DNA of 64,000 nucleotides from a virus, in IMG/VR virus record IMGVR_UViG_3300027763_000029; one strand, written 5' to 3'. Positions 54,888-60,882 of the stretch are shown here, in pieces; the first letter of the stretch is position 1, and each line of letters starts with the position of its first letter. A model generated the notes under the pieces. The model ran no database searches and was not told the origin of the DNA. It saw only the letters and a program-made list of their open reading frames with translations. A program made the position numbers and the translations under genes.

Positions 54888-55924
54888 TCACATACTTTAG
54901 AAGTAGTTCATATAACACACACTCAATGTGCGAGCAGCAATATTTTCTCGAATATGTTCTTGGCTATCGTGGTCCATCGGGCCAAAAAGCCGATAAAGGA
55001 ACCATAGTTCATAAAGTCTTAGAAATACTAGCAGTTATAAAAAAGGCACAGCAAGATGATGTTAAAGTTATCGATGATGATGTGGTAGGAAAAGTAAATA
55101 TCTCAAACTATAGCTTGAATGTTATTATAGAGGAAGTATATAAGCATTATTCAGAAGCTAATTCTCATCACAAGTGGGCATTGAAAGACTATAAAGATTG
55201 TCACGCATGGGTTTACAAAGCAATAGAATTTAATGATGGTATGTTCGATCCAAGGAATAGACATATACTATGTCCAGAGCAACATTTTGATATCGAGATT
55301 AAAAAACCTTGGGCAGCATATTCTTATGATACTCCAGAAGGTAAGCTAGAAGGTAATTTGGGTATTAAGGGTACTATAGACCTTATAACCTTAGTAAACG
55401 ACAATACTATTGAAATTATTGACTGGAAAACTGGTAGAAGATTAGATTGGGCGACTGGTAAGGAAAAGACCTTAGAAAAACTACAGACTGATCCACAGTT
55501 AAGAATATATCATTATGCTATTAGTCATTTGTATCCTCACATAGACCACATTATATTTTCTATCTATTTTATCAATGACGGTGGACCTTTTTCGATATGT
55601 TTTGATAAATCAGATCTTTCTAAGACAGAGGATATGTTACGTCAAAAATTTGAGGTGGTTAAGAATACAAGAAGGCCAAGACTTAATAAAACTTGGATGT
55701 GTACAAAATTATGCCATTTTGGTAAAACAACATTCGACAATACTCACATACAACCGCAAGTAGAATATAGAGAAAATCAAACTTGCAGTCTTGGTTCAAC
55801 AATGACAAAATGTGAACAAATTAAACATGATATTGATCTGAATGGTATGGATTCTGTTGTAAAAGAGTATAAGAATAAGAATCACTCATTTGCAAAGTAC
55901 AAAGCACCCGGAACCACAGAATGA
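54881..55924 (+). CDS. PD-(D/E)XK nuclease (RecB/Cas4-like); probable ATT start
   Basis: SSSYN...C, GTIVH..LE, GTIDL...IIDWKTG, QLRIY, C..LC; SD AGGAG 8 nt before ATT at 54881. Confidence 0.8.
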   Translation: MIVTYFRSSSYNTHSMCEQQYFLEYVLGYRGPSGQKADKGTIVHKVLEILAVIKKAQQDDVKVIDDDVVGKVNISNYSLNVIIEEVYKHYSEANSHHKWALKDYKDCHAWVYKAIEFNDGMFDPRNRHILCPEQHFDIEIKKPWAAYSYDTPEGKLEGNLGIKGTIDLITLVNDNTIEIIDWKTGRRLDWATGKEKTLEKLQTDPQLRIYHYAISHLYPHIDHIIFSIYFINDGGPFSICFDKSDLSKTEDMLRQKFEVVKNTRRPRLNKTWMCTKLCHFGKTTFDNTHIQPQVEYRENQTCSLGSTMTKCEQIKHDIDLNGMDSVVKEYKNKNHSFAKYKAPGTTE

Positions 55925-55936
55925 TATTTCGGTCGC

Positions 55937-55964
55937 TTGACAACACCCGTTCGTATCGTACAAT
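55937..55964 (+). promoter_or_regulatory. Sigma70-like promoter TTGACA-N16-TACAAT for dnaE-N
   Basis: Intergenic, ~60 nt upstream of ATG 56024. Confidence 0.65.
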
Positions 55965-55971
55965 ACATCGA

Positions 55972-56076
55972 GTCAGTTTCTCATTGACCCACCCCCAAAA
56001 TACCAAAAGAAGGAAAATAAAAGATGGACGTGAATAAGAGGTATATTCCTCTGCACGTCCATTCTTAAGTGGGTCA
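55972..56076 (+). promoter_or_regulatory. Structured dnaE leader/recoding element
   Basis: Nested pairings TGACCCAC(55985-92)/GTGGGTCA(56069-76), ATGGACGTG(56024-32)/CACGTCCAT(56054-62), AGAGG(56037-41)/CCTCT(56048-52). Confidence 0.65.
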
Positions 56077-57909
56077 CACTACTCACTTTTGGATGGACTA
56101 TCTAAGCCTGCACAAATTGCAAAAAGATGTAATACTCTTGGAGTAACTTCGTGTGCAATTACTGACCACGGAACAATATCTGGAACTGTGCAGTTTTACC
56201 AGTCAATGAAATCTAATGGTATCAAACCCATTTTAGGTTGTGAACTATATATCAGCGAAGATGATTCTCACATAAAGACTAAAGAAAATAGTAAGCTTGG
56301 ACATTTTATAGTTTTAGCTAAGAATAAAAAGGGATGGGCTAGTTTAATCAGAATAATATCTGAATCTAATAGTAAGCATAATTTTTATCATAAGCCAAGA
56401 TTGAGCTTTAATAGATTACAAGAATTCTTAGATGGTAATCTAATTGGTTTTTGTGGTCACTTAGGATCAGTATTAGCAAATAAGATACTAAGATCCAAAG
56501 ATGATTCCGAAAAAGAAGCTATTGAAATGATAGCTAAGATGAAGGATATGTTTGGTAAAGATAATTTCTTTCTAGAGTCTCAACTCATGGATAGAGAACA
56601 TATACCAGAACAGATTCAGTTAACAGATTTGATAAGAAAACTTGGATCAATAACTAAAACAAAAGTAATATGCACACCAGATGCTCATTATTGCGATAAA
56701 TCTGATGCTGTTGATCAAAGGATCCTTTTATGTAATAATCTAAAGACTACTCTTGTTGATATCAATAAAAAGATACTTAATAATGAAGATGTTCCTATGG
56801 GATGTTTTTTTAAGTCAGATAATTATTACATATTGTCTCCAGAAGAAATGGCTGATTTACACACTCAAGAAGAAATAGATAATACTAATCATGTAGATTC
56901 TATGATAGAGTCATATGATATTCTAAATAAACCTGCTCTTCCAAATTTTGAATGTCCAAAAGGATTTAATCCAGATGAATATCTAAGAGAATTATGCAGA
57001 AATGGTTGGAGAGATAAGATAGCCAATAATATTCCAAAGGATAAACAACAAATCTATGTTGATAGAATTAAGGAAGAATTGGATGTTTTGCAGGGCGCTG
57101 GGCTGTCCAGCTACTTTCTTATCATTCAAGACATACTTAACAATGTAAAGTCTAATAATTGGCTTCCGGGACCAGGAAGAGGATCTGCTGCTGGATGTTT
57201 AGTATCCTACTTAATAGGAATTACTGCTATAGATCCTATAAAGTATGATCTATTGTTCAGTAGATTTTATAATTCTGGTCGAAATACTGCTGACCGTATT
57301 TCCATGCCAGATATAGATGTTGATGTACCAATTAACAAAAGAGAAGAAATCATCTCATATATTAAAAATAAGTATGGAAGCAATAAGGTATCTCAAATGA
57401 TAACTTATAATACTATGAAAGGCCGTGGAGCCTTAAAGGAAGTATTAAGAGTATATGGCAACGTGGCATTTGAAGAGATGAATCGTATAACAAAATACAT
57501 CCCGGATGAAGCAAAAATTGCAGACGAATTGCAAGAAATGAAAGAAGATACTGGCGAAGCATCCATTATTCGTTGGGCATTAGAAAACAATGTTGACAAA
57601 CTCAAGGAGTGGTGCTATATTAATGAGGAAGGAGAATTAGCCGGTCCTCTGGCCAAGCGTTTTGAACAGGCTATTCGTTTGGAAGGAACTAAATCTAATC
57701 AATCAAAACACGCTGCTGGTATTGTAATTAGTATAGATGAATTGAGTAATGTTTGCCCCATGATTTATGATTCAAAAAATGATCAACTTATTGCGGGCAT
57801 GGAAATGCAGGACCTGGAATCTTTGGGTGTAATTAAATTTGATATTCTAGGCGTAGCTATGCTAGATAAGATTATGACTATTTCTGACCTATTAAAAAAT
57901 GGAGAATAA
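56024..57909 (+). CDS. dnaE: DNA polymerase III alpha, N-terminal subunit (PHP + palm), interrupted by an 11-nt insert at 56066-56076
   Basis: MDVNKRYIPLHVHS* in one frame, then HYSLLDGLSKP..TDHG..GCE..DAHY..GRGSAAG..PDIDVD..KHAAG..KFDILG in the -1 frame. Confidence 0.9.
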
Positions 57910-57911
57910 CC

Positions 57912-58088
57912 ATGGAAAAGACTTTCGGTGAAGTAGCGGTAGGAGAAAATTTTAGCGTAAATGGTTCTGAGTATACCAAGGTAAATGCTGTAAAAGTTAG
58001 TTGTTGTCAGTCTATTAATGCTCATTTGGTAGATGACGCTAACTCAAGAGTATTTTTTACCGATAACCTAATGGTGGTGGTCAATTAA
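57912..58088 (+). CDS. Small beta-rich protein (58 aa), not in the ORF track
   Basis: SD GGAG; MEKTFGEVAVGENFSVNGSEYTKV...; TAATG coupling to the exonuclease. Confidence 0.65.
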   Translation: MEKTFGEVAVGENFSVNGSEYTKVNAVKVSCCQSINAHLVDDANSRVFFTDNLMVVVN

Positions 58089-58783
58089 TGCCTAATTTTC
58101 AAAAAATTTGTGTTTTCGATCTGGAGACTGACGGTATTAATCCAGAGAAATGTAGTCCTGTTCAGATAGCTGCCATAATTATAGATCCTCTTAAACTACA
58201 AGTAGTGCCAGACTCCGAGTTTAATATTAGTATTAAGCCAGAAGCATTGATAGATAATCCAGAATATGACTATGCAGATAGTGATGTGTTGGATTTTCAT
58301 GCAAAGGTGAGAGGTTCTTCTAAAGAGGATATTCTAAAAGAATGGAAGTCTTATCAGAAGCAGGATCATGGATGGAAAATGTTTACATCATACCTGGATA
58401 TGTATCATACAAGATCCGAAAGAAAATCTTGTTTTAGTGCTCCCATTGCTGCGGGATATAACATAAATAGGTTTGATCTGAAAATTATTGAGAGACTTAG
58501 TACAAAATATGACAATCTCAATAAAGAGGGCAAGTCTAGTCTATTTTATCCTAGAGATGTTGTAGACTTGATGAATATGGTATTTTATTGGTTTGAAGGT
58601 AACAATGAGCTTAAAAATTATACTCTAGATAATCTTAGAGATTATTTAGGTATATCAAAAGAAGGTGCTCATGATGCTCTGAAAGACGTAAAAGATACTG
58701 CTGATATATTAATTAGGTTTTTAAAATTGCATAGGAATTTATCTAACAAGATAAAATTTAAGGGGTCATTTGCGAATGTCTGA
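58088..58783 (+). CDS. DEDDh 3'-5' exonuclease (DnaQ/epsilon-like)
   Basis: VFDLETDG, GYNINRFD, AHDALKDV. Confidence 0.9.
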   Translation: MPNFQKICVFDLETDGINPEKCSPVQIAAIIIDPLKLQVVPDSEFNISIKPEALIDNPEYDYADSDVLDFHAKVRGSSKEDILKEWKSYQKQDHGWKMFTSYLDMYHTRSERKSCFSAPIAAGYNINRFDLKIIERLSTKYDNLNKEGKSSLFYPRDVVDLMNMVFYWFEGNNELKNYTLDNLRDYLGISKEGAHDALKDVKDTADILIRFLKLHRNLSNKIKFKGSFANV

Positions 58784-60398
58784 TTTTTTTGCGTTTGATT
58801 GCGGTTGTAAGTTTAAAGTAATAGACAATTCTGGCGATATTCCAAAAATAGATTTCTCTGCTAATATAGAGAATCTTAATTTGGAGTGTCACAGAACTTG
58901 GGACTTGATATCCGAAGGTAATACTAAAGGATGTTTTCAGTTGGAGTCTAGGCTCGGGCAAATGATGGCTAAAAAACTTAAGCCAGAAAATATTGAACAG
59001 TTATCTGGGTTGATAGCTATTCTTAGACCAGGATGCTTAGAGTCTGTAAGAGATGGCAAGAGTATTACCAATCATTATATAGATAAGAAAAATGGATTGG
59101 AAAGTATTGACTATTTTCATATGGCATTAGAACCAGCATTAAAGACAACATATGGAGAGATGATATACCAAGAAGAGAGTATGCAGATCGCCCATGATAT
59201 TGCAGGATTTGATCTGCAGGAAGCTGATATGTTAAGAAAGGCTATTGGAAAAAAGAAGCCAGAAGAAATGGCTAAATTGAAGAAAAAATTCTTAACAGGA
59301 TCCAAAGAAAAGAATATCGTAACAGAGGATCAGGCAGAAGAAATCTTTGGCTGGATTGAAAAATCACAAAGATACTCTTTCAATAAGTCACACAGTATAA
59401 GTTATGCTATGAACGCATATCTCTCAGCTTATACAAAAGCACACTTCTCCAGGATATTCTTTGCATCATATTTAAAGTTTGCTAAAGACAAGATAGATCC
59501 TCAGCAAGAGATAAAAGAATTGGCAAGAAATGCTAATGAGATGGGTATTGATGTTAGATTACCAGATCTACGCAATCTTAATAAGAATTTCTTCATTAAA
59601 GATAAGAATATATATTTTGGATTAACAGATATCAAAGGTGTTGGAGATTCTGTATTTAAAAAGTTGCTAGAACTTAATGAGCAAAAAGATATTAGTTCAT
59701 TAGGATATATTCAAAGCATCTGTCACATATTACTGAATATTAACTCAACAGCTGCAAAAGCTCTTGTTGGTAGTGGCGCTCTGGATTATTTTAGAAAAAA
59801 TAGAACTGAAATACTTTTTCATTACGAAATATTGTCATCTCTAACCAAGAAAGAGTTAGAACTATTTGCGGGCCTTATAAGTGATAAGCCTACATCAGAT
59901 ATAAAGGTCGTACTACAAGCATTGCTTAATGAAAAGATAACAAAAAAGAGAATAGAGCCAATTTCTAACTTAATAAGATCACTGGAGCATCCTCCTTATT
60001 CATTAACAGATAAGATAGAATGGTTATCTGATTCAGAAAACTCTTTTCTGGGTGTAGCCATATCTTGCTCTAAATTAGACTCTTATGATATTAGTATGAC
60101 CAATACTAATTGTAAAGAATTTAAAACTACGCTACTATCAGAAAAAATAATCTTAGCCGGTGAAGTTAGCAATGTAAATATTATTAAGACAAAAAAGGGA
60201 AAAAATCCAGGACAAGAAATGGCATTTGTTAGTGTTGAAGATGCTTATGGTCTATTGGATTCTGTTATCTTTTTCCCGGAACAATTAGAGACATATAAGC
60301 ACCATCTATTCCAAGGTAATGTGCTAATTTTTATTGGCAACAAAACAAAAACAAAGGATGGTTTGGTTGTCGATAAGTGTTTTACGCCGAGATCTTGA
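58776..60398 (+). CDS. dnaE: DNA polymerase III alpha, C-terminal subunit (fingers, HhH, OB-fold)
   Basis: GCFQLES, RPG, TYG.MIYQE, ADMLRKAIGKK, YSFNKSH, GLTDIKGVG, MAFVSVED. Confidence 0.92.
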   Translation: MSDFFAFDCGCKFKVIDNSGDIPKIDFSANIENLNLECHRTWDLISEGNTKGCFQLESRLGQMMAKKLKPENIEQLSGLIAILRPGCLESVRDGKSITNHYIDKKNGLESIDYFHMALEPALKTTYGEMIYQEESMQIAHDIAGFDLQEADMLRKAIGKKKPEEMAKLKKKFLTGSKEKNIVTEDQAEEIFGWIEKSQRYSFNKSHSISYAMNAYLSAYTKAHFSRIFFASYLKFAKDKIDPQQEIKELARNANEMGIDVRLPDLRNLNKNFFIKDKNIYFGLTDIKGVGDSVFKKLLELNEQKDISSLGYIQSICHILLNINSTAAKALVGSGALDYFRKNRTEILFHYEILSSLTKKELELFAGLISDKPTSDIKVVLQALLNEKITKKRIEPISNLIRSLEHPPYSLTDKIEWLSDSENSFLGVAISCSKLDSYDISMTNTNCKEFKTTLLSEKIILAGEVSNVNIIKTKKGKNPGQEMAFVSVEDAYGLLDSVIFFPEQLETYKHHLFQGNVLIFIGNKTKTKDGLVVDKCFTPRS

Positions 60399-60422: not shown

Positions 60423-60473
60423 ATGTTATCGTGTTCGTTTGGTTTGGTTTAAATTTTTAATTAAGGAGATGAT

Positions 60474-60854
60474 ATGAATATCACGATTTTGAGAGGTAAT
60501 TTAGCAAGAGATCCTGAGCTAAGAGTCGTTAATACTGGCGGCAAGCAGACTTCTGTTGTTAATTTTACCGTAGCTGTCTCTAGGGAATATACTAAGGCTA
60601 GTGGTGAAAAGGATAAGGTAACTTCATTTATTAATTGCGAAGCATGGGACAGTGGTGCTGAGATCATAGGATCTTCATTTAAGAAGGGTGATCTGGTTCT
60701 AGTAGAAGGATCTCTACGCAATGATACGTGGGAAAAGGATGGCGTTAAGCATAGTAGTCTAAAGGTTAGAGTTAATAATTTCTCTAAGATTACTAAGTTG
60801 TCAAAGCAGGGCAAGGGCGAACAAGCGGAACCTGCTGAGTCCGTTGCTTTCTGA
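60474..60854 (+). CDS. ssb: Single-stranded DNA-binding protein
   Basis: GNLARDPELR, FTVAVSR, CEAW...AE, KGD.V.VEGSL...W. Confidence 0.95.
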   Translation: MNITILRGNLARDPELRVVNTGGKQTSVVNFTVAVSREYTKASGEKDKVTSFINCEAWDSGAEIIGSSFKKGDLVLVEGSLRNDTWEKDGVKHSSLKVRVNNFSKITKLSKQGKGEQAEPAESVAF

Positions 60855-60882
60855 TTAGGATATTTAGAATATAATTTCATAA

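Follow-up and report, generated by a model that had tools for sequence, protein, structure and literature searches.

The dnaE gene of an uncultured large phage (IMG/VR record IMGVR_UViG_3300027763_000029) is interrupted past codon 14 by a stop codon and a few bases. The window is the whole stretch of DNA that was analysed, 64,000 nt in length. The features at the locus, all on the + strand, are as follows:

55937..55964, +: sigma-70-like promoter, TTGACA-16 nt-TACAAT, with 11 of 12 consensus positions
56008..56014, +: SD-like AGAAGGA, 9 nt 5' of the ATG, found by inspection of the sequence
56024..56068, +: first coding segment MDVNKRYIPLHVHS, 14 codons (ATG at 56024-26) plus TAA
56063..56065, +: candidate take-off codon TCT (Ser14), with TAA directly 3'
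56066..56073, +: non-coding gap, made up of the stop TAA (56066-68) and GTGGG (56069-73)
56074..56076, +: candidate landing codon TCA (Ser), with resumption of decoding proposed at CAC 56077-79
56074..57909, +: second coding segment, the N-terminal half of DnaE, containing the remaining PHP domain and then the palm/thumb 'NTPase' domain
57912..60398, +: 58-aa ORF, DnaQ-like exonuclease (58088-58783) and C-terminal half of DnaE (58770-60398)

The first segment is the source of the PHP-domain HxH metal-ligand strand. The second segment lies in the -1 frame relative to the first, is open through 57909 and begins with TCA at 56074-76, followed by CAC TAC TCA CTT TTG GAT GGA (SHYSLLDG). Deletion of 11 nt (56066-56076) yields PLHVHSHYSLLDG, the canonical PHP motif. 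An initial annotation of this DNA had described this Ser-stop-gap-Ser layout and the effect of removing the 11 nt, and its coordinates and frames are all as described. In profile searches, the PHP profile is shared out over both coding segments. The second segment matches PF02811 (6e-33, only from profile position 6) and PF07733 (4e-72), and the PHP alignment that begins at position 6 in the window begins at position 2 in an uninterrupted relative. The initial annotation was also correct that the other PHP ligands are retained, as TDHG, GCE, GHF, CGH and DAHY are all present in the translation, and that there is no slippery heptamer. The window junction is without an X XXY YYZ or CUU-U-type slippery site, and re-pairing of tRNA-Ser at -1 or +1 is impossible. 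The first ATG, GTG or TTG in the dnaE frame of the window is TTG 56089, located 20 nt downstream and without an SD.

The promoter sits in the 100-nt spacer that separates dnaE from an upstream PD-(D/E)XK nuclease gene, whose stop is at 55924. L001 and L003, the closest relatives, keep it; in other relatives with the insert, the spacer is short and has no such promoter. The neighbours of dnaE are a primase, a dNMP kinase, the PD-(D/E)XK nuclease, the DnaQ-like exonuclease and SSB. The polymerase is split at a second site, into N- and C-terminal halves, in the window and in all relatives, and the gene order of the 57912-60398 block is the same in the uninterrupted relative L004. No HNH or GIY-YIG homing endonuclease gene lies beside the cassette, and genomes with the insert share their gene order with those lacking it. 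A phage tRNA-Ser for UCN, which could have been a dedicated hopping tRNA, is absent from the complete relatives. Their only tRNA-Ser is tRNA-Ser(ACT), found in insert-bearing and insert-free genomes alike.

Distribution and variation of the insert

The Ser-stop-gap architecture is found in 44 distinct cores from IMG/VR and JGI metagenomes, representing dozens of independent assemblies, and at least 43 sequence-distinct relatives of the window dnaE share the break. Protein matching in IMG/VR gave 20 insert-bearing loci out of 58, and pattern scans raised the total to 44 distinct cores. Approximately 30 relatives have an uninterrupted HVHSHYSLLDG. The assembly error that had been a concern in the initial annotation is thereby excluded, and its refuting case, in which all relatives would have a continuous HVHSHYS, is not what the relatives look like. 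The architecture is kept across about 70% protein identity, complete genomes of 180-238 kb are among its carriers, and the downstream ORF of ~600 codons is intact in every locus of sufficient length. A megablast of the region against GenBank phages gave no match and the best tblastn hit was ~33% identical, which indicates that there are no cultured close relatives.

Alignment of the dnaE 5' ends, which had been suggested alongside the original claim, revealed a conserved Ser-stop-gap-Ser arrangement with an insert that varies in sequence and length. The first segment has 14 codons, rarely 13, and an AAGGAG-like element is in the equivalent place upstream in 46 of 46 aligned relatives. The codon before the stop is TCT, TCC or TCA in 44/44 cores, and in all 44 a stop (TAA, TAG or TGA) is directly 3' of it. 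The insert is 7 nt in one core, 9 nt in nine, 10 nt in 16, 11 nt in 16 and 12 nt in two, so 0, +1 and -1 frame relations all occur. In L125, TGA occurs in the old frame as well as in the new one. The non-coding gap in the relatives is 4-9 nt, purine/U-rich, and covaries with the downstream codons that it pairs with.

The flanks of the insert vary as coding sequence does. Y-x-P-L-H-V-H-S is invariant as protein across the 44 cores with synonymous codon changes (Leu as CTG, CTA, TTA, CTT or TTG; Pro as CCT or CCG; His as CAC or CAT), and variation in S-H-Y-S-L is almost confined to third positions. With the insert excised, HLHQHTQFSLLDG aligns to IPLHVHSHFSLLDG of Taq DnaE (2HPI) with equal spacing and no indel, and the uninterrupted relatives have the same spacing.

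The cores differ in whether they have an in-frame start. A start codon in the downstream frame near the upstream stop is absent from the window but present in 15/44 cores (the ATG/GTG sub-types), either as an in-frame GTG right after the stop or as an ATG where decoding would resume, preceded by an SD-like AGGTGG. Of the 29 cores that lack such a start, 26 have TCN as the landing codon, two have GCT and one has TGA. The start-bearing cores often have a non-Ser landing codon (ACT, GCT or GCC), in 11/15 compared to 3/29 of those without a start. In the ACT type, a perfect UCA is present but lies out of frame, 2 nt beyond the landing position. The initial annotation stated that a single tRNA-Ser(UGA) can read both codons. 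This fits the TCT/TCA pair of the window; it does not extend to relatives that go from TCC to TCA or that have ACT, GCT, GCC or TGA landings.

Predicted RNA helices

In the window, RNA folding gave an MFE of -33.9 kcal/mol (z = -4.5). Folding energy per nt is -0.096 kcal/mol in the uninterrupted relatives, which are without this structure, as against -0.330 kcal/mol where the dnaE start is interrupted. Three helices are predicted:

56023..56063, +: hairpin H1, from predicted fold and covariation
56067..56088, +: hairpin H3, from predicted fold and covariation
56057..56098, +: alternative helix H2, from synonymous-site conservation

The lower stem of H1 pairs GAUGGACGUG (56023-32, AUG included) with CACGUCCAUU (56054-63), and the upper stem pairs AGAGG (56037-41) with CCUCU (56048-52). 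It folds in every variant, at -13 to -22 kcal/mol. Of the stem, 96% is paired, with one pair being GC in 27 sequences, AU in 18, GU in one and a mismatch in none, and the upper stem covaries as AGAGG/CCUCU, AAAGG/CCUUU, AAGGA/UCCUU and AGGAA/UUCCU. A pattern scan for the H1 plus HVHS arrangement without a stop returned none.

H3 pairs AAGUGGGU (56067-74) with ACUCACUU (56081-88) around the loop CACACU. It begins with the second stop-codon base and reaches the Tyr-Ser-Leu codons, the landing codon lies at the top, and H3 is predicted in 30/30 distinct gap variants. Compensatory sets include GUGGGU/ACUCAC, GUGAGU/ACUCGC, GUGAAU/AUUCAC, GGGAAU/AUUCUC, AGCGAAU/AUUCGCU and AAGGAAAA/UUUUCUU. H3 is 93% paired, and one pair is GC in 20 sequences and AU in 15. 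None of 500 shuffles equals the covariation score of H1 and H3, and slid registers are 39-55% paired; the covariation counts for both hairpins are inflated by shared ancestry. An SD-like sequence in the gap was also considered as the conserved signal and was rejected, since its strength differs between variants, from strong (AGGUGA) to weak (AGAGAA, GCGAA). What is conserved in the gap is H3 pairing and not SD identity.

H2 pairs GUCCAUUC (56057-64, which includes the first two take-off bases) with GGAUGGAC (56091-98). It encloses H3 and is mutually exclusive with H1. The synonymous sites of its downstream partner, GGATGGAC, are frozen only in insert-bearing genes, with TTG GAT GGA conserved at 92-100% of synonymous sites in these genes compared to 47-69% in uninterrupted ones. 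H2 is 99.7% paired, with wobble-compatible changes only and no covariation. When the 5' arm was blocked in silico, H2 (as H2+H3) became the MFE structure in 13/13 variants. Thus, a predicted stem-loop with the take-off codon on its 5' side (H2+H3) and a 5' stem-loop (H1) are both present. The codons for the start, for HVH and for LDG make up the three arms, in which ATGGAC occurs twice and GTCCAT once. A relaxed pattern tolerating arm changes matched only by chance in unrelated ORFs (L118-124, L126), meaning that neither central-arm variants nor copies in other genes nor any H2 covariation were found.

Pairing of the leader with the insert (GACCCAC 55986-92 with GUGGGUC 56069-75) is in the window MFE but absent from L001 and L003 although these two have an identical gap, and is therefore regarded as incidental. 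A generic script for other stop plus matched-codon junctions in the window returned 152 hits, mostly trivial and off-frame, and was uninformative.

A candidate translational bypass

With moderate confidence, the comparisons suggest that the 5' end of the replicative polymerase gene of the phage is translated by a programmed short bypass, analogous but not homologous to that of T4 gene 60. Apparently, the intact enzyme can be made only by a ribosome that skips 7-12 bases. Skipping, and not frameshifting or readthrough, is suggested by the three frame relations, L125, the coding-type flanks and the exact HxH-S-x-Y-S-L-L-D-G spacing. In the window itself, skipping the gap would restore the normal protein, the stop is 3' of the take-off codon, the take-off and landing codons match as Ser/Ser (TCT to TCA) and the stem-loops are predicted. 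The initial annotation had left a choice between a ribosomal hop and a micro-intron. The hop is favoured by the frame-independent inserts, L125, the coding flanks and the exact spacing; the micro-intron is disfavoured by the 7-12 nt length and the lack of an Rfam family.

In the proposed route, the ribosome would initiate at AUG 56024 and synthesize MDVNKRYIPLHVHS. Peptidyl-tRNA-Ser would then be on UCU (56063-65) with UAA in the A site, and would release its codon without termination. After an 11-nt slide of the mRNA, the tRNA would re-pair at UCA (56074-76) and decoding would continue from CAC, giving a single polypeptide with the canonical ...PLHVHSHYSLLDG... PHP motif. The expected tryptic or Lys-C junction peptide of this product is YIPLHVHSHYSLLDGLSK. 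While the start region is covered by the ribosome, the take-off codon, stop and gap would form the 5' side of the long composite hairpin H2+H3, whose tip would carry the landing codon. This arrangement is similar to the take-off stem-loop of gene 60. At take-off, the codons behind the P site (CACGUCCAU) would be the 3' arm of H1 (about -20 kcal/mol), and its 5' arm, the start-codon region, would already be outside of the ribosome. H1 re-forming from the exiting mRNA could pull the message forward by approximately the gap length and block backsliding. Precedents are the T4 gene 60 signals and the model in which pairing of exiting mRNA acts as the driver. In free mRNA, H1 would bury the AUG, and for this reason the cassette probably also holds polymerase synthesis low or ties it to upstream translation. 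That the hop itself gates polymerase synthesis, as first proposed, is speculation.

More tentatively, the helices may form a three-arm RNA toggle that is a minimal self-contained bypass element. The take-off hairpin ahead would free the AUG, and the ~-20 kcal/mol hairpin behind would then drag the message 7-12 nt past the stop. Under this doubtful but possible scheme, the ATG/GTG sub-types would be an evolutionary escape into a two-piece enzyme.

Several observations weigh against a bypass. At just 14 residues, the nascent chain is shorter than the nascent-peptide signal that gene 60 relies on. With H1 (about -20 kcal/mol) over the AUG, initiation should be strongly reduced, so the helices could serve initiation control and not bypassing; H2 is without covariation. 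Landing codons are imperfect in three start-less cores (GCT twice, TGA once), and the perfect UCA of the ACT type is off-frame. Moreover, the 15/44 cores with an in-frame GTG or ATG look like classical termination-reinitiation, and the protein might function in two pieces. In these relatives, termination-reinitiation may occur instead of, or alongside, hopping. As a general explanation it would have the 14-residue peptide released at the TAA and the same ribosome restarting to make a DnaE without the HxH strand, with the peptide either complementing the PHP barrel non-covalently or serving as a leader ORF that opens the hairpins. The AGGTGG(G)-N3-ATG at the resume position of the ATG-type groups (L061, L070, L080), the in-frame TAA-GTG of the GTG type and the enrichment of non-Ser landings in both argue for it, as does the existing split of dnaE at the second site, and H1 and H2 may act like a coupling switch. 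Nevertheless, this explanation is unlikely for the locus as a whole. Ahead of the second Leu codon, a canonical start in the dnaE frame is missing from the window and from 28 further cores. That Leu codon, TTG 56089 in the window, is CTG in three lineages (L003, L060, L070). S-H-Y-S-L upstream of it evolves as coding sequence, and U83 is never C although C would pair better. The resume position can also be GAA or CAT following a GCT landing (L184, L180), so the ATG found there may be merely one tolerated residue. Finally, a 14-residue strand given in trans would be unprecedented for PHP domains.

Conventional recoding that retains the insert as residues is improbable. It would take a -1 (or +2) frameshift in the window to give HVHS-LSGS-HYS, a +1 shift in the 10-nt relatives and readthrough in those with 9 or 12 nt, such that close relatives would need three different mechanisms. 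Frameshifting is known to be stimulated by an A-site stop codon, as in prfB, and with the -1 frame of the window open from 56038, a shift anywhere before the TAA is mechanically workable. However, re-pairing of the tRNA-Ser is impossible at both -1 and +1, each of the two frames of L125 contains a stop, and the would-be residues (LSGS, LSES, LGES, RES) follow RNA pairing and not protein constraint. The motif spacing is also fixed in the ~30 uninterrupted relatives and Taq DnaE. Programmed -1/+1 frameshifting was rejected on the missing slippery site, the inserts of 7, 9, 10, 11 and 12 nt, and L125. Stop readthrough or code reassignment was rejected since the window is out of frame and TAA, TAG and TGA are all used among relatives. 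Removal of the insert from the RNA before translation, by a micro-intron or by an endonuclease plus ligase, would be as independent of frame as a hop, and the location of the insert inside the conserved hairpin H3 could provide a recognition element. This reading is still less probable than recoding. A length of 7-12 nt is far under that of any self-splicing intron, and no Rfam family matched at E <= 1, barring a sub-threshold chance U7 match on the opposite strand. We know of no bacterial or phage system that excises a 7-12 nt segment from mRNA. In addition, ribosomes would account for the invariant stop that follows the take-off codon and for the Ser/Ser match, and splicing would not. An 11-nt interruption in one lone genome would normally point to an assembly or sequencing error, or to a dnaE pseudogene. 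With 44 distinct versions from many independent assemblies, complete genomes among them, an intact downstream ORF and an architecture kept at about 70% identity, this is hardly credible and appears, for practical purposes, refuted by the comparative data.

Relation to known bypass systems

Like T4 gene 60 and its T4-like homologues, the dnaE cassette has a take-off codon with a stop directly 3' of it and located on the 5' side of a stem-loop, a gap that ends in a matched landing codon, an additional 5' stem-loop of mRNA outside of the ribosome and a purine-rich, SD-like stretch in the gap. Both are in essential phage replication genes and are patchy among relatives, as if by cassette exchange. 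The differences are considerable. The dnaE gap is 7-12 nt compared to 50 nt in gene 60 (20 in one Aeromonas clade), the landing codon is within the stem-loop and not beyond it, and the 5' hairpin takes in the start codon and abuts the take-off codon. With 14 nascent residues, a KKYK-type signal is absent, and a Ser codon and dnaE stand in place of a Gly codon and a topoisomerase gene. There is no adjacent homing endonuclease and no apparent sequence homology. A homologue of the gene 60/MobA mobile cassette was thus rejected, based on the gene, which is not that of the topoisomerase II large subunit, the lack of an HNH/GIY-YIG neighbour and the gap length.

In the gene that encodes the terminase in Streptomyces phage Hau3, two 10-nt frame-disrupting inserts are a candidate regulatory bypass, for which the junction peptide was seen by mass spectrometry in E. 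coli (PMC10732093). Similar to dnaE, these are inserts of ~10 nt in an essential phage gene that are missing in relatives, the joined flanks give a normal protein, and local RNA structure and an SD-like element accompany a landing codon drawn near the take-off site. The A-site trigger in Hau3 is the rare UUA, whereas in dnaE it is a stop (TAA, TAG or TGA). The Hau3 inserts are known from only a few (pro)phages, while the dnaE cassette, placed at codon 14, is conserved together with its covarying helices across dozens of diverged phages. Synthetic 'stop-hops' in E. coli (Weiss et al. 1987; PMC5009743) are formally the same event as the proposed dnaE hop, though they are low-efficiency events in artificial constructs without stimulators, and the dnaE site is natural, conserved and has candidate stimulators. 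No natural in-frame stop-hop is known, according to a review (PMC5009743). The byps of Magnusiomyces capitatus mitochondria (27-55 nt) are likewise inserts in any frame that are skipped by ribosomes, and their take-off and landing codons often match imperfectly, at two out of three positions. Unlike the dnaE cassette, byps are mitochondrial, mobile and GC-rich, occur in many copies and genes, and have an unassigned A-site codon. The dnaE cassette is a single site in one gene, and pattern scans found no copies elsewhere.

No published report of a dnaE hop cassette was found. To our knowledge, programmed translational bypassing is among the rarest decoding events, and the well-supported natural cases are T4 gene 60 with its homologues and the yeast mitochondrial byps, with the Hau3 terminase as a partly tested candidate. 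If true, the dnaE cassette would be a rare new natural case and would supply the missing class of natural stop-hops. If the toggle is also true, efficient hopping would be possible without a long nascent-peptide signal or a long gap, and short stop-hops, long predicted, would serve a whole lineage of large phages for their replicative polymerase. The relatives form a natural mutagenesis series of 44 variants, with five gap lengths, three stop codons, several landing codons and covarying helices. With this series, exiting-mRNA pairing, A-site structure and codon matching are directly testable in a 100-nt construct. Gene callers cut the replicative polymerase of these phages short. An essential replication gene might tolerate or exploit such a device for dosage control or to couple its expression to upstream translation, or the cassette might be a selfish one that is swapped by recombination.

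Organization of the interrupted dnaE gene

The dnaE gene of the window encodes Pol III alpha and is broken near its 5' end. Re-reading of the sequence agrees with the layout that the initial annotation had placed at 56024-56100: a 14-codon ORF ends on a Ser codon (the take-off codon) and is followed by a stop, a short gap, a second Ser codon (the landing codon), and the rest of the gene, beginning at the resume position.

56024, + strand: start codon ATG, 9 nt 3' of AGAAGGA
From 56024, + strand: first segment, 14 codons, MDVNKRYIPLHVHS, the last being TCT at 56063-65
56066-68, + strand: stop codon TAA, directly 3' of TCT
From 56069, + strand: gap GTGGG, then TCA at 56074-76 and CAC TAC TCA CTT TTG GAT GGA

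The second segment is in the -1 frame relative to the first, is open as far as 57909, and encodes the remainder of the PHP domain and the Pol III alpha 'NTPase' domain. Its PHP profile match starts at profile position 6, compared with position 2 in the uninterrupted relative L004. As initially proposed, the other PHP ligand motifs (TDHG, GCE, GHF, CGH, and DAHY) are all retained, and removal of the 11-nt insert (56066-56076: stop, gap, and landing codon) restores a DnaE start, PLHVHSHYSLLDG.

The window is phage-like, with ~33% GC and tightly packed, co-oriented ORFs. Upstream of dnaE are, in order, genes for a Toprim primase, a dNMP kinase, and a PD-(D/E)XK nuclease; an SSB gene lies downstream (60474-60854, + strand; PF00436, 4e-25). 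A 139-aa antisense ORF without a Pfam match (60461-60880, - strand) covers the SSB gene fully and is probably spurious. The polymerase is split a second time, into DnaE-N (PHP and palm/thumb), a 58-aa ORF, a DnaQ-like exonuclease of the RNase_T type, and DnaE-C (fingers, HhH, and OB), spanning 56024-60398 in the window and 3971-8324 in L004. The ORF between DnaE-N and the exonuclease is 58-60 aa long without a Pfam match, and the DnaE-C start falls within the last codons of the exonuclease gene. This order is the same whether or not a relative carries the 5' insert, so the second split is a trait of the whole family that does not depend on the 5' cassette.

Two alleles in related phages

Among GenBank phages, nothing is nearer than ~33% protein identity; in IMG/VR, 58 loci match at 65-98% identity. 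Several of these lie in complete genomes, which are 180-238 kb long and have terminal repeats. The complete relatives bear clusters of 9-11 tRNA genes, in which no tRNA-Ser for UCN is encoded. A tRNA-Ser with the unusual anticodon ACT (A34) is present in insert-bearing and insert-free complete genomes alike (L129, 1575-1661; L135, 1578-1664; L134, 1734-1823; L150, 1577-1662; L146, 1344-1432).

The sequence upstream of the protein match divides the 58 loci into two classes. Class A (38 loci) has an unbroken M-x-x-Y-x-P-L-H-x-H-S-H-Y-S-L-L-D-G, with an ATG that in most cases overlaps the stop of the nuclease gene (ATGA). The Ser-stop-gap architecture marks class B (20 loci and the window). Pattern scans of IMG/VR and JGI metagenomes enlarged class B to 44 distinct cassette sequences (cores), so the variable inserts that the initial annotation suggested looking for in relatives exist. 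All 44 have a Shine-Dalgarno sequence (SD), a 14-codon ORF (13 in one group) ending Y-x-P-L-H-V-H-S, a stop right after the Ser codon (TAA, TAG, or, once, TGA), and a short gap before x-Y/F-S-L-L-D-G. Relative to class A, the insert is 7 nt (1 core), 9 nt (9), 10 nt (16), 11 nt (16), or 12 nt (2) long, so that, according to lineage, the second segment continues the frame of the first or is shifted by +1 or -1. The scans of IMG/VR revealed no cassette without a stop and none in genes other than dnaE. These comparative data exclude sequencing error or gene decay as the origin of the interruption.

The insert-bearing lineages are not monophyletic in a maximum-likelihood tree of DnaE-N, and class A and class B are paired with good support in three places (the window clade with L004, L014 with L009, and L036 with L048). 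The classes differ in the entire 5' segment rather than by a simple indel, and the class B start ATGGRCRTG is found in no class A gene; the alleles have therefore probably been exchanged through recombination among co-occurring phages. Both classes occur in one metagenome (3300010885). The genes neighbouring the cassette include no homing endonuclease.

Conserved RNA helices

A 107-nt segment of the window folds at -33.9 kcal/mol (z = -4.5), with 0 of 200 shuffles equally stable; class A is much less structured than class B (-0.096 vs -0.330 kcal/mol per nt). No Rfam family matches. Three helices are predicted.

56023-56063, H1: lower stem GAUGGACGUG (start-codon region) with CACGUCCAUU (His-Val-His codons and first base of the take-off codon); upper stem AGAGG with CCUCU
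56057-56098, H2: GGAUGGAC (TTG GAT GGA bases) can pair with GUCCAUUC (56057-64, including the first two take-off codon bases)
56067-56088, H3: gap with the Tyr-Ser-Leu codons, beginning at the second base of the stop codon; landing and resume codons in the loop

In H1, the bases coding for M-D-V are the reverse complement of those coding for H-V-H. This helix is 96% paired across 46 sequences; one pair is GC in 27, AU in 18, a GU intermediate in 1, and mismatched in none, and the upper stem covaries among four sequence versions. H3 is predicted for 30 of 30 distinct gap variants, with compensatory sets including GUGGGU/ACUCAC, GUGAAU/AUUCAC, AGCGAAU/AUUCGCU, and AAGGAAAA/UUUUCUU, and is 93% paired in a fixed-column count vs 39-55% in slid registers. 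The covariation score of the whole structure exceeds 500 of 500 shuffles, though shared ancestry inflates such counts.

H2 and H1 are mutually exclusive. Changes in H2 are wobble-compatible only, without covariation. Synonymous sites of TTG GAT GGA (56089-97) are 92-100% conserved in class B vs 47-69% in class A, and conservation in class B returns to background one codon further on. With the 5' arm blocked, as it would be by an initiating ribosome, H2 and H3 form the minimum free energy (MFE) structure in each of 13 variants tested. This composite hairpin spans 42 nt; its 5' side comprises the take-off codon, the stop, and the gap, and its tip carries the landing codon. A pairing of the leader (GACCCAC, 55986-55992) with the gap and the first landing-codon bases (GUGGGUC, 56069-56075) in the MFE fold of the putative transcript is probably incidental, as L001 and L003 have the same gap without the complement.

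Proposed decoding across the gap

Substitution patterns indicate that both flanks of the gap are translated. Pro-Leu-His-Val-His-Ser is unchanged throughout the first segments while its synonymous codons vary (five for Leu, two for Pro, two for His), and the Tyr codon is unpaired in the hairpin loop, yet invariant. From the landing codon to the second Leu, nearly all changes are third-position (TCN; CAY; TAY/TTY; TCA/TCT/TCG; CTN), and changes that would strengthen RNA pairing but swap an amino acid are never seen. In the window, no ATG, GTG, or TTG precedes TTG 56089 in the dnaE frame, and three separate lineages (L003, L060, and L070) have CTG in its place. With no usable start ahead of this coding-type sequence, translation in the dnaE frame would have to be continued from the first segment.

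How it continues is, in our judgment, somewhat better explained by a ribosome hop (translational bypass) than otherwise. Frameshifting or readthrough, which would keep the insert as residues, is disfavoured: three mechanisms would be needed, and 2-4 residues would be added to a motif that aligns without an indel between class A and Taq DnaE of solved structure (2HPI). It also fails for L125 (3693-3812, - strand), the most divergent cassette, whose stop is TGA, whose insert is 7 nt long (TGAGTGA), and which lacks a Ser landing codon. L125 reads TCA TGA G TGA GAA TAT, with one stop in each of the two relevant frames, old and new; of all variants, it is the hardest to reconcile with any explanation other than a hop or a downstream restart. 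Excision of the insert from the RNA has no known machinery.

Termination-reinitiation draws support from the 15 of 44 cores with an in-frame start, either a GTG directly after the stop (TAA GTG ACT CAT) or an ATG at the resume position behind AGGTGG(G). These cores frequently have ACT, GCT, or GCC as the landing codon, compared with TCN in 26 of 29 cores without a start. In the ATG-type sub-family (L061, 2237-2310, and equivalents in L070, L080, L089, and L090), the ATG is in the H3 loop and the landing codon has drifted to GCT/GCC, which may mark a switch to reinitiation, whereby the 14-residue HxH peptide would be free and DnaE would have its own start. The in-frame starts and the altered landing codons suggest that reinitiation is in use in some lineages, or that they escaped to it, giving an enzyme in two pieces; at the protein level, the 14-mer of these lineages remains conserved. 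As a general explanation, however, reinitiation is opposed by the window type, which lacks any start codon, by L180 and L184, where a GCT landing codon is followed by CAT or GAA without a start, and by the tolerance of H, M, and E at the resume position.

For the hop, H1 must open for initiation, whereupon its central arm would pair forward as H2 and H3. The ribosome would melt these helices and arrive at UCU with UAA in the A site. At take-off, the H1 3' arm would occupy positions -9 to -1 inside the ribosome, with its partner arm already outside. If the peptidyl-tRNA-Ser uncouples, re-formation of H1 (~-20 kcal/mol) could pull the mRNA forward by about the length that expels the 3' arm, which approximates the gap length. 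The tRNA would re-pair at the first UCN, and decoding would restart at CAC. Whereas the sequences document the architecture, its conservation, and the helices, we infer this order of events, the efficiency, and any role of the nascent 14-residue chain.

The cassette is analogous, not homologous, to T4 gene 60, with which it shares a stop after the take-off codon, a matching landing codon, a stem-loop with the take-off codon on its 5' side, and a second, 5' stem-loop, which is proposed to push the message forward as it forms from mRNA leaving the ribosome. Among the closest precedents are the 10-nt inserts of the Streptomyces phage Hau3 terminase (PMC10732093) and synthetic stop-hops. A 2016 review expected short natural counterparts of stop-hops but knew of none (PMC5009743). 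The literature searched contained nothing on bypassing in dnaE or in phages of this type.

Burial of the AUG in the predicted H1 suggests that the cassette may also limit dnaE translation or couple it to upstream translation. The distance between the end of the nuclease gene and the dnaE SD is ~0-25 nt in most class B relatives. The window's clade has a unique 100-nt spacer containing a putative promoter, conserved in L001 and L003.

55937-55964: near-consensus sigma-70-type promoter, TTGACA-16-TACAAT, 11/12 matches

The natural variant series makes the proposed mechanism readily testable.
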